From: a virus
Lineage: Duplodnaviria > Heunggongvirae > Uroviricota > Caudoviricetes
Virus record (IMG/VR): IMGVR_UViG_2541047778_000015
Reading direction: 5' to 3' (one strand)
Length of the DNA stretch: 40,861 bases
A model generated the notes under the pieces. That model made no database searches. It was not told where the DNA came from and worked only from the letters and a program-made list of their open reading frames with translations. Positions 32,403 through 34,301 of this stretch are shown here, one piece after another (position 1 is the first letter of the stretch; each line of letters starts with the position of its first letter). The translations under genes and the position numbers were made by a program.

Positions 32403-33179
32403 TTACTTGATAAATCCTGCCGCCTTTCCCCGCCTGTATTCCTCCATCAGCCACTGCGCCGGTGTTATTCCCCCAAGGGTGGCGGCGTTAGGCATGCACC
32501 CGAAACTTCGCCCTGGTGGATGGTAAACGTCTCTCCCTGTGTCCGGAGGCGTACTCATGGGTTCTGGCTTTGCCTGTATGCTGATCACCGGATCGGGTAT
32601 CTGCTGTCCGGAAGCCACCTTTTTCGCCCAATCATCGAGCAGCCTGCGCGCGTGTTTCTCAACCTCAATCTCGCTAAGCTGGCGCTGATACATTGCACGG
32701 CGGGTATCACATACGACCCAGTACATAACCGGATGCCGCCACGGGAATCTTTCGGGACCACCAGGATATAAACTTTTTTCCTTGCTGTACCGGTGAAACT
32801 CCGCCATCACATCGTCAATGGTGACGCCAAGAACCATCTTGCTGTCTTTACACCACTTGATGAATTGCCCTGGCGACGGCCAGAACGGAGACTCACTGGC
32901 GCGGGCGTGGCGCATACCAGCGTTAACCTGTTCCATTGTAGTGATCCCATTCTCCAGAAACGCAAGCATCCATTGCTTACGGAATTCATTAAGTTTGTTC
33001 TGCTCCCTTATGGTCGAAACGCTTGCAGGAAATGCAGCCTGTAACTGGACAAATAGTTCATTGAAAATTCTAGCGACCTGCTCCTTTTTGCCATTGCTGT
33101 CACGCCGCTCTTCATGCACAGCAACACCATGCTCACGTAAGCGATCGTACTCATTGAGAAGTTCTGGAGTTGATTTCAT
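32403..33179 (-). CDS. Replication protein P-like helicase loader
   Basis: AAFPASVSTIREQNKLNEFRKQWMLAFLENGITTMEQVNAGMRHA...PSPGQFIKWC parallels lambda P as recalled. Confidence 0.75.
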   Translation of the reverse strand: MKSTPELLNEYDRLREHGVAVHEERRDSNGKKEQVARIFNELFVQLQAAFPASVSTIREQNKLNEFRKQWMLAFLENGITTMEQVNAGMRHARASESPFWPSPGQFIKWCKDSKMVLGVTIDDVMAEFHRYSKEKSLYPGGPERFPWRHPVMYWVVCDTRRAMYQRQLSEIEVEKHARRLLDDWAKKVASGQQIPDPVISIQAKPEPMSTPPDTGRDVYHPPGRSFGCMPNAATLGGITPAQWLMEEYRRGKAAGFIK

Positions 33180-33981
33180 CCCACACCCCTTCTATCCAGT
33201 CAGTGTTATTCCAGTCAAGCTCATCGCTTTTCCCGACGTTTTTTGATTTTCCCCTGATATGATTTACGTGCCTGGCGAATTTTTGTTCCCACTGAACCTG
33301 CGTGAACACTTTGCCCTCAGCCATCCAGTAATCCCGGAATGCAGCAAGTTCAGCAGGTGTAAATTCCGGTTCCGGCAGGGCCGTTCCCCACAGCGCAGCA
33401 CGCCGTCGAAAATCCGGCGACGGATGCCAGCCATCGGTCATCGGAAATTTCCCAATAGGTTCACTCAGGCCATCCAGAAATGCAGGTTCTGCCACCTGCA
33501 ACGGCGTACCGTTCGCTTCACTGGTCGGATCACTCTCGCGCGCGTGTGCTATGTGTGGGGTTTTATATATATCTTCCTCTTCCTCTTCCTCTGGTAACTC
33601 CTTTTGTAACGCTGTTGGCGTTACTTTTTGCGTTACTCGTTTTCGATGCTCTGCCACTCTTCTATTCGTAAGTGCACGTTTTTTCGATGATTCTCCATTG
33701 TGTCGCTCAAAGTTTGGAAGAATTAGTTTGCCGTCATGATAAGCAAGCCATCCGACGCTAATGAGGGCGTCAGCAAATCCTGTAATAAAAGCGAGTCTAT
33801 CAAGTACTCCTTTTGTAACGCTGCCAGCGTTACCGTCTATTGTTTGCTGGTCAGCCCATGCCCATATACGAACCAGCTTTCCAAGAACAGCATCTGGATC
33901 AATACCCAGAATTTCTGCTATCTGAAAAATTTCAGGTTTATCAGGAGTGATAACTTCAACCTTAATCCAGCTGCTTGCCAT
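33151..33981 (-). CDS. Replication initiator (replisome-organiser N-domain, DnaT-like C-domain) containing the candidate origin
   Basis: Start at MASSWIKVEV (AGAGGGG RBS); internal Glu6 linker coded by a TC-rich/AT-rich tract; C-terminal FTPAELAAFRDYW region; iteron-like palindromes inside the gene. Confidence 0.7.
   Translation of the reverse strand: MASSWIKVEVITPDKPEIFQIAEILGIDPDAVLGKLVRIWAWADQQTIDGNAGSVTKGVLDRLAFITGFADALISVGWLAYHDGKLILPNFERHNGESSKKRALTNRRVAEHRKRVTQKVTPTALQKELPEEEEEEDIYKTPHIAHARESDPTSEANGTPLQVAEPAFLDGLSEPIGKFPMTDGWHPSPDFRRRAALWGTALPEPEFTPAELAAFRDYWMAEGKVFTQVQWEQKFARHVNHIRGKSKNVGKSDELDWNNTDWIEGVWDEINSRTSQ
33561..33836. other. Candidate origin of replication: pyrimidine/AT-rich tract plus GTAACGC-N5-GCGTTAC palindromes
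   Basis: TTTTATATATATCTTCCTCTTCCTCTTCCTC (33561..33592); palindromes at 33606..33624 and 33815..33833 embedded in a 28-bp direct repeat with 3 mismatches; extra GCGTTAC at 33630..33636. Confidence 0.5.
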
Positions 33982-34156
33982 AGGTTTCCCCTCTTGCACT
34001 CTTTAGTGCACAAGCAAATTCATTACGATGGCGGTTGGCGCTATTCATTGCACATTCAACACATGTTCCGTTCAGAACATACCTTTCAGAGAGATGGCCG
34101 TGACGGCACCGCTTTCCTGTGAAATAGCGATTTAACCCGGCTTTTGCGGCCTCCAT
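33962..34156 (-). CDS. Small Cys-containing protein overlapping the initiator start (doubtful)
   Basis: 64-aa frame with CRHGH ... CVEC; weak RBS; occupies the position where lambda carries cII. Confidence 0.25.
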   Translation of the reverse strand: MEAAKAGLNRYFTGKRCRHGHLSERYVLNGTCVECAMNSANRHRNEFACALKSARGETYGKQLD

Positions 34157-34251
34157 TCTGGTTACTATCTTCAATTTTTCCGCCCCTTTTTGTTATTGAT
34201 ATTGGCTATTTTGCACAATTGGAAAATTTGATCAACCAGATTTGGTTTTTT

Positions 34252-34268
34252 ATTACCTTTGAGGTACG
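34252..34268. promoter_or_regulatory. Operator-like site ATTACC-tttga-GGTACG (degenerate right arm)
   Basis: Between the cro-like gene and the replication genes. Confidence 0.35.
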
Positions 34269-34269
34269 A

Positions 34270-34301
34270 ATAGATATGAAAAGACCGCCGGATGGCGGTC
34301 T
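34270..34301 (-). terminator. tR1-like terminator candidate downstream of cro
   Basis: Perfect 8-bp hairpin AGACCGCC-ggat-GGCGGTCT; on the minus strand it is followed by UUUCAUAUCUAU. Confidence 0.4.

Follow-up and report, generated by a model that had tools for sequence, protein, structure and literature searches.

The DNA analysed here, referred to as the window, is a stretch of 40,861 nucleotides that is ~99% identical to Escherichia phage TL-2011b, a Uetakevirus-like temperate podovirus. The genes and protein domains in and around its replication initiator gene are the following:

32403-33179, minus strand: gene of a lambda P-like helicase loader (PF06992 Phage_lambda_P, E=2e-55; PHROG 109 'P-like helicase loader')
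33151-33981, minus strand: replication initiator gene, coding for 276 aa from the ATG at 33981, with an alternative GTG at 33999
33241-33447, minus strand: DnaT-like ssDNA-binding domain of the initiator, aa 179-247 (Pfam DnaT DNA-binding domain)
33625-33981, minus strand: N-terminal domain and basic helix of the initiator, aa 1-119, proposed sequence-specific DNA-binding module
33962-34174, same strand as the initiator gene and upstream of it: gene of a Zn-ribbon-like protein of 70 aa (PHROG 1081) with a C-x-H...C-x-x-C motif
34301-34282, same strand as the initiator gene and upstream of it: terminator-like hairpin
Upstream of the initiator gene, same strand: Cro/CII-like gene
Divergent: CI-like repressor gene

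The initiator matches PHROG 2509, 'replication initiation protein', over its full length (E=5.9e-129, aa 1-268 on profile positions 1-277/277), and the loader gene starts inside the 3' end of the initiator gene, the overlap being 29 nt. The fold of the C-domain is that of the ssDNA-binding domain of DnaT, and no Pfam family was matched by the N-terminal 120 residues. In an AlphaFold model built from 45 homologs, the N-domain (aa 10-90) is predicted with confidence and consists of four helices and a beta-hairpin; a long basic helix (aa 91-119) and a disordered segment (aa 120-170) separate it from the C-domain. The structural matches of the N-domain were weak, the RepA_N initiator 4pta and the DnaD N-domain structures 2vn2 and 8ojj being found, and the assignment of a winged-helix-like fold to this domain is weak.

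The DNA elements detected within the initiator gene are the following:

33561-33571, no strand: pure A/T run of 11 bp, TATATATAAAA on the coding strand, candidate first-melting point
33572-33592, minus strand (pyrimidine on the plus strand): purine-only run of 21 nt, AGAGGAAGAGGAAGAGGAAGA, a (GAGGAA)n repeat that encodes Glu6
33594-33636, no strand: proximal array of four half-sites, encoding aa 116-129 at the start of the linker
33597-33624, no strand: copy A of a 28-bp direct repeat (ACTCCTTTTGTAACGCTGTTGGCGTTAC), detected by a repeat finder
33806-33833, no strand: copy B of the 28-bp direct repeat, 25/28 identical to copy A, at a spacing of 209 bp
33815-33833, no strand: distal site, a perfect palindrome GTAACGC-N5-GCGTTAC with a tgcca spacer, in the part coding for the N-domain (aa 50-56)

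A first-pass annotation of this DNA had described a pyrimidine/AT-rich tract encoding a Glu6 linker, two palindromes, one of them with an extra GCGTTAC, and a 28-bp direct repeat with 3 mismatches, and all of them were recovered. The tract, TTTTATATATATCTTCCTCTTCCTCTTCCTC, starts at 33561 on the plus strand, and the minus (coding) strand encodes PEEEEEEDIYK, aa 130-140. The proximal palindrome, GTAACGC-tgttg-GCGTTAC, is perfect over its 19 bp (33606-33624), and the further GCGTTAC arm lies at 33630-33636. This left site had been read as a palindrome with a spare arm, a description that had to be revised: a degenerate half-site with 1 mismatch, GTAACTC on the plus strand, is present at 33594-33600, so that the left element comprises four half-sites, arrayed with a pitch of 12 bp. 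In the orientation of the gene, the half-sites read GTAACGC (33636-33630), GTAACGC (33624-33618), GCGTTAC (33612-33606) and GAGTTAC (33600-33594), which corresponds to a → → ← ← arrangement, and the pitch is exact (starts at 33594, 33606, 33618 and 33630). The two copies of the 28-bp repeat are read in different codon phases (VTPTALQKEL versus GNAGSVTKGV), so that the repeat is a feature of the DNA and not of the peptide, and its origin as a by-product of a repeated peptide was ruled out.

The purine-only run begins 1 nt past the last proximal half-site and is the longest homopurine/homopyrimidine run in the window. The segment from 33561 to 33580 is the least stable 20-mer of the coding part of the replication module and belongs to the least stable 0.4% of the window; the purine tract itself has ~48% G+C, and the pure A/T stretch measures just 11 bp. 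The run from 33572 to 33592 is a candidate for a part of an unwinding element and is also a module junction. Array, purine tract and A/T run are together encoded at aa 116-140, where the model passes from the folded part into the disordered linker. In the whole window, GTAACGC occurs 13 times against 3.9 expected, a count that was reached in 0/100 shuffles, and 5 of the 13 copies fall within 33606-33833. No other match to the full 7-5-7 palindrome pattern with fewer than 3 mismatches was found in the whole 40.9-kb window, and no DnaA box with fewer than 2 mismatches was found within 33100-34300.

Phage genomes were searched by tblastn for relatives of the initiator, and twelve genomes were then scanned without prior assumptions on the motif. 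The tblastn matches showed that the N-domain has been shuffled onto differing C-termini in phages of Escherichia, Enterobacter, Klebsiella, Salmonella, Xanthomonas, Ralstonia, Pseudomonas, Vibrio and Aeromonas. GTAACGC-N5-GCGTTAC is present at ~aa 50 and at ~aa 120 in BUCT554, Klebsiella ST11-OXA245phi3.2, E. coli 673R7, Xanthomonas CP2/Tabio and Ralstonia YL1/CBW1004C, and the distal palindrome lies at the same codons in the Enterobacter, Klebsiella, Xanthomonas and Ralstonia phages. The N-domains of CP2, Tabio, YL1 and CBW1004C are ~48-52% identical, yet the palindrome has been kept. In the more distant epsilon15, SPN1S and phiPSA1 (~35% identical), another half-site makes up the same layout, as in GTCCGC-aaagc-GTCCGC-atctgaa-GCGGAC-aaaaa-GCGGAC, and the → → ← ← arrangement with clade-specific half-sites recurs in these three phages and in others. 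The half-site of Aeromonas pAEv1818 is GTCACG, mainly in direct repeats, and that of a Vibrio phage is GTCACA.

All half-site types except GTCACG and GTCACA are accompanied by a purine run of 21-29 nt that starts 1-2 nt past the last proximal half-site, and in the relatives a short AT-rich run comes after it. The run is a (GAGGAA)n repeat encoding Glu runs in the clade of the window; elsewhere it is a (GAGAA)n repeat that is read in another phase and encodes REEKRRE. The possibility that the tract forms H-DNA as a mirror repeat was rejected on inspection: (GAGAA)n is mirror-symmetric, the (GAGGAA)n of the window is not, and mirror symmetry is therefore not a conserved property of the tract.

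By four scans of IMG/VR the set was enlarged to 260 loci, of which 210 were distinct; the IMG/VR loci are biased towards relatives of the four queries. Their N-domains were grouped by single linkage at 60% identity into five clades, and the most recurrent non-homopurine 6-mer in the first 520 nt, was determined for each clade by an unbiased search:

Clade of the window, n=71: GTAACG-type in 70
Xanthomonas/Ralstonia clade, n=4: GTAACG-type in 4
Epsilon15 clade, n=79: GTCCGC-type in 77
Aeromonas-type clade, n=49: GTCACG-type in 48
Vibrio clade, n=7: mixed, GTCACA-like

The sequence of the half-site co-varies with the clade of the initiator N-domain. The bipartite layout, defined as a distal cluster (nt <280 of the gene) and a proximal cluster (nt 280-480) with at least 2 exact half-sites each, is present in 205 of the 210 distinct loci. 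Within the proximal cluster, → → ← ← is the commonest pattern of the epsilon15 clade, and the exact cores in the clade of the window mostly read → ← ← or → → ←, with a fourth site that is often degenerate. In three of the five clades (0, 1 and 4), 150 of the 154 loci have at least 10 nt of uninterrupted purines after the last proximal half-site, the median offset being 1-2 nt. The Aeromonas-type clade, in which the half-sites are mostly direct repeats, is without a pure purine run, and the tract is thus not universal.

Half-sites are concentrated in the first 480 nt of the gene, where their density is 12-18 per kb as compared to 0.3-0.5 per kb elsewhere in the loci. In the GTAACG clades, the entropy at third codon positions is 0.04 inside the half-sites and 1.15 outside (p=8e-6, with related sequences treated as independent); the corresponding values are 0.20 and 1.11 in the epsilon15 clade and 0.26 and 0.91 in the Aeromonas-type clade. 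The 5-nt spacer between half-sites varies freely. Nearly invariant wobble positions in the half-sites together with a free spacer are the pattern that would be expected for a site read by a symmetric protein. When synonymous codons were shuffled, the observed number of half-sites was reached in at most 1/5000 shuffles, a weak null since the amino acid sequence itself is shaped by the sites; the arguments from wobble entropy and codon phase are stronger than this test.

The codons that carry the distal cluster are not homologous between clades (aa 19-35, aa 50-58 and aa 47-69), which indicates that selection keeps a second cluster 170-320 bp upstream rather than one particular sequence. No common helical phase between the distal and the proximal cluster was found, the centre-to-centre distance having medians of 186-290 bp and a range of 172-320.

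The known system that most invites comparison is lambda, whose origin has been proven to lie in the iteron/AT region: O attaches to the iterons, and DnaB is loaded where the AT-rich tract has melted (PMC3349717, PMC7466680). In the lambda genome (NC_001416), four tandem 18-bp dyad iterons, TCCCTC...GAGGGA, are located at nt 349-433 of O. Next comes ACAAAAGAAAAAAGAAAAGATTATT, a sequence rich in purines on the coding strand; the linker of O is encoded by the entire region, and iterons and purine-rich AT tract correspond to its aa 117-160. The window resembles this arrangement in several respects. Its sites are also inside the segment of the initiator gene that codes for the interdomain linker, array, purine tract and A/T run occupying aa 116-140, and the lambda-like placement proposed in the first-pass annotation is therefore well founded. 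The candidate initiator-binding sites are likewise repeated and have dyad symmetry, a coding-strand purine-rich tract with an A/T run lies on their C-terminal side, and a gene for a P-family helicase loader follows immediately downstream, as P follows O.

The two systems differ in other respects. The gene had been called O-like, which is appropriate for its position and role but not for its ancestry: the initiator has no detectable homology to O, no match to PF04492 (Phage_rep_O) being obtained at a Pfam E<=0.01, and the N-domain alignment, when compared with lambda O, reached an hhalign probability of 0.3%. Its C-terminal domain is DnaT-like. Where lambda has four 18-bp dyad iterons in tandem, the window has four half-sites of 7 bp in the order → → ← ← with a 12-bp pitch. 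Palindromic sites as such, which had been presented as a departure from lambda, are not one, as each lambda iteron is itself an 18-bp dyad; the true departure from lambda is the bipartite layout, with an additional cluster ~210 bp upstream in the coding sequence of the N-domain. For unwinding, the candidate is a purine repeat, (GAGGAA)n/(GAGAA)n, accompanied by ~11 bp of pure A/T; as an element of the classical kind it is much weaker than the AT-rich tract of 38 bp in lambda. The element appears to work like ori-lambda but does not belong to its family.

It is well established that origins can lie within initiator genes, and some of the origins of DnaD-type replisome organisers of Gram-positive phages sit inside the organiser gene. 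With these organisers and with the Rep proteins of iteron plasmids, the window shares a putative winged-helix type of initiator and repeated short sites beside a tract that may melt easily. The combination of a Rep_3 or RepA_N initiator domain, direct iterons of 17-22 bp and an intergenic origin, as in iteron plasmids, was not found in the window element. The E. coli DnaT protein, which is involved in replication restart, differs from the initiator in that it lacks an N-domain for sequence-specific origin binding and works at forks bound by PriA/PriB rather than at origins; the NCBIfam DnaT equivalog score of the initiator is 93, far under the cut-off of 201. No report on an origin, a motif, binding or unwinding was found in the literature for this initiator family, including epsilon15, TL-2011b, phiV10 and the DnaT-like phage initiators, although an earlier mention may exist.

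The logic shared with ori-lambda, the order of the elements along the gene, the nearly equal codon position and the P-family loader downstream all lead to the reading of this element as an origin. It is probably the bidirectional (theta) replication origin of the phage, located within the coding sequence of its own initiator in a lambda-style layout. The segment from 33561 to 33636, which unites the binding array and the unwinding tract, is likely to be the origin core, and the distal site at 33815-33833 is likely to be an auxiliary part. A replication origin in the initiator gene had already been proposed in the first-pass annotation, and the proposal gains strong support from the placement of the elements in the linker, the conservation of the layout in 205/210 loci, the co-variation of half-site and N-domain and the constraint on wobble positions.

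From the elements, their conservation, this co-variation and the domain folds, we infer a course of events that comprises binding, looping, melting and helicase loading. The 7-bp half-site GTAACGC would be recognised by the winged-helix-like N-terminal domain, and initiators would fill the four proximal half-sites, one per helical turn with two facing two, as well as the distal palindrome ~210 bp upstream. The two clusters would probably be joined in one nucleoprotein complex by bridging. This complex might strain the adjoining purine/pyrimidine tract and A/T run (33561-33592) until they melt, and the DnaT-like C-domain and the lambda P-like loader could then deliver the host DnaB helicase to the opened DNA.

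A bolder version of this scheme is conceivable, but we consider it rather doubtful. The origin would be obligatorily bipartite and dual-coded, with initiator oligomers that bridge the two clusters in the coding sequence into a loop of ~200-300 bp and thereby provide the torsional stress for melting. The (GAGAA)n/(GAGGAA)n repeat would not merely be easily melted; it would be a specific single-strand recognition element comparable to the DnaA-trio of bacterial oriC, captured by the conserved basic helix (aa 91-119) or by the C-terminal domain. Such a combination of a bipartite loop with single-strand recognition of purines would be a mechanism of origin opening undescribed for phages, and the recognition would account for a 5-nt repeat that is kept where the frame encodes a non-repetitive peptide. 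As a single-stranded target specific for the DnaT domain, the tract was ruled out, since tract and arrays are also present where Pfam detects no DnaT domain.

The half-sites could serve autoregulation instead of or besides initiation. In the form of this idea that competes with the origin, the clusters are operators at which the initiator or another repressor keeps the replication operon from being transcribed or translated, and the true origin is elsewhere. Inverted repeats bound by dimers are typical of operators, and the Rep proteins of iteron plasmids, which repress their own synthesis through inverted repeats, provide a precedent. An extra palindrome is moreover present within 300 nt upstream of the gene in 39 of the 71 loci of the clade of the window, and repression is plausible in 673R7, whose copy directly precedes the start codon. 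No copy of the GTAACGC palindrome is present upstream of the initiator gene in the window. In the linker, a purine or AT-rich tract is always adjacent to the proximal array, and an operator has no need of it. As the array also matches the lambda origin in position and no rival repeat-rich origin candidate was seen in the replication module, we regard operators in place of an origin as unlikely; the two roles are not mutually exclusive.

It was also considered that the purine tract and the flanking repeats may mainly be a recombination linker at the junction of the N- and C-domains, through which initiator modules are exchanged by homologous recombination. Similarity to the Klebsiella phage at the DNA level extends as far as 33572, where the purine run ends, and protein matches to the N-domain end at aa 130-138 in phages with unrelated C-termini. 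The same N-domain with its arrays is combined with ~10 homology groups of C-termini, and both arrays and tract occur with as well as without a DnaT domain. A linker leaves unexplained why the half-sites are clade-specific, why there is a distal cluster, why the pitch is exact and why wobble positions are constrained next to free spacers. A junction would in any case be expected at a conserved origin core, so that the recombination linker is more likely a by-product than the function, and as the main role it seems very unlikely.

It is extremely improbable that the palindromes function through hairpins in the mRNA or in an antisense transcript, be it as a terminator, a processing site or a translational pause, instead of as DNA bound by a protein. 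Both can form stem-loops of 7-8 bp, and the proximal one is followed on the plus (antisense) strand by TTTTT and was flagged in a scan for terminator-like structures, but this T-run is a mere spacer to the next half-site and exists on the antisense strand only. In the Aeromonas-type clade, the two clusters are retained but are built from direct repeats, from which no hairpin can form, and within clades the arms are invariant, without the compensatory changes typical of RNA stems. Accordingly, neither a hairpin with a U-run on the transcribed strand nor a covarying stem was found, and a search of the element against Rfam gave no match.

Binding of the half-sites by the small Zn-ribbon-like protein instead of the initiator, suggested by its C-x-H...C-x-x-C motif, its conservation in several relatives and its adjacent gene, which overlaps the start of the initiator gene, is scarcely probable and was ruled out, because the protein is ~78% identical (manual alignment count) between the Klebsiella phage (GTAACGC) and SPN1S (GTCCGC), and so does not co-vary with the sites, and because it is absent from 673R7, CP2, YL1, phiPSA1 and epsilon15, which all bear arrays.

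Most origins of temperate phages and prophages are unmapped, and the element described here offers a concrete and testable origin candidate for a widespread initiator family. This family covers the Uetakevirus group (epsilon15, SPN1S and the phiV10-like TL-2011b) and extends to many prophages of Enterobacteria, Pseudomonas, Xanthomonas, Ralstonia, Aeromonas and Vibrio. Natural specificity pairs, made up of N-domain clades and the at least four types of half-site that go with them, might be used for specificity swaps and for orthogonal replicons. If the origin reading is correct, the ori-in-linker design of lambda recurs with an unrelated initiator, either by convergence or as a very old shared design. 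The coding sequence would moreover be constrained by the candidate protein-binding sites that overlap it, as the half-site dictates a GNA..VT peptide motif. This exact element is contained in ~4% of the complete E. coli genomes.

The similarity of the window DNA to the Klebsiella phage ST11-OXA245phi3.2 stops exactly where the purine run of the candidate origin ends (33572), within the initiator gene (33151-33981, minus strand); in phages whose C-termini are unrelated, the match to the N-domain stops at amino acids 130-138. Together, these endpoints indicate that the candidate origin core and a module-exchange junction coincide at 33572. Beyond this junction lies the following feature, identified by sequence matches:

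33241-33550, minus strand: DnaT-like C-terminal half of the initiator

YdaU of Rac-type prophages and the 'primosomal protein' of an Actinobacillus phage match this half at 82-84% identity, although their N-domains differ from that of the window initiator. Judged from these matches, the C-domain is a separately mobile module. The purine tract itself (33572-33592) shows microsatellite behavior: among near-identical prophages (loci L013-L092), the length of (GAGGAA)n varies between 15 and 35 nt, and the Glu stretch that it encodes in the initiator linker varies accordingly.

Additional palindromes were found inside the window's initiator gene and, in relatives, upstream of it:

L003:1468-1488: extra upstream GTAACGC palindrome, an example from the palindrome scan of relatives
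33922-33935: 14-bp palindrome CTGAAATTTTTCAG, at codons 16-20, close to the 5' end of the initiator gene

In 39 of the 71 loci of the window's clade (grouped by N-domain at 60% identity), the 300 nt preceding the initiator gene contain at least one extra copy of the GTAACGC palindrome, the proposed initiator-binding site; the window itself has none upstream of this gene. In the E. coli phage 673R7, the extra palindrome directly precedes the initiator start codon. These upstream copies may act as an operator for autoregulation or form a third cluster of the candidate origin. The counterpart of the 14-bp palindrome in Enterobacter phage BUCT554 is still palindromic (CTGAAATATTTCAG).

Two further features lie upstream of the initiator gene:

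33962-34174, minus strand: gene of a 70-amino-acid protein (PHROG 1081), by profile family match and motif
34282-34301, minus strand: strong terminator-like hairpin, AGACCGCCATCCGGCGGTCT then TTTT

The first shares 20 nt at its 3' end with the start of the initiator gene. Its product, probably a zinc ribbon, contains an invariant C-x-H-G-H...C-V-x-C motif and is kept in BUCT554, a Klebsiella phage and SPN1S, but many phages that carry an initiator of this family lack it. The hairpin separates the Cro/CII-like gene from the replication genes, a placement similar to that of lambda tR1, which implies that expression of the replication genes requires read-through or antitermination. Over the 70 bp that flank it, many phiV10-like phages share 96-100% identity with the window, and the matching region is annotated there as 'terminator'.

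Genomes or MAGs of Planctomycetes are the recorded source of two N-domain homologs (P0044 and P0061, 51-58% identity). This is far removed from the hosts of the other members, which are Proteobacteria, and could mean that the host range is truly broad or that the records are contaminated. Of 5426 complete E. coli genomes, 237 contain the candidate origin region (321 bp), in every case on the chromosome and, in some genomes, in two places.
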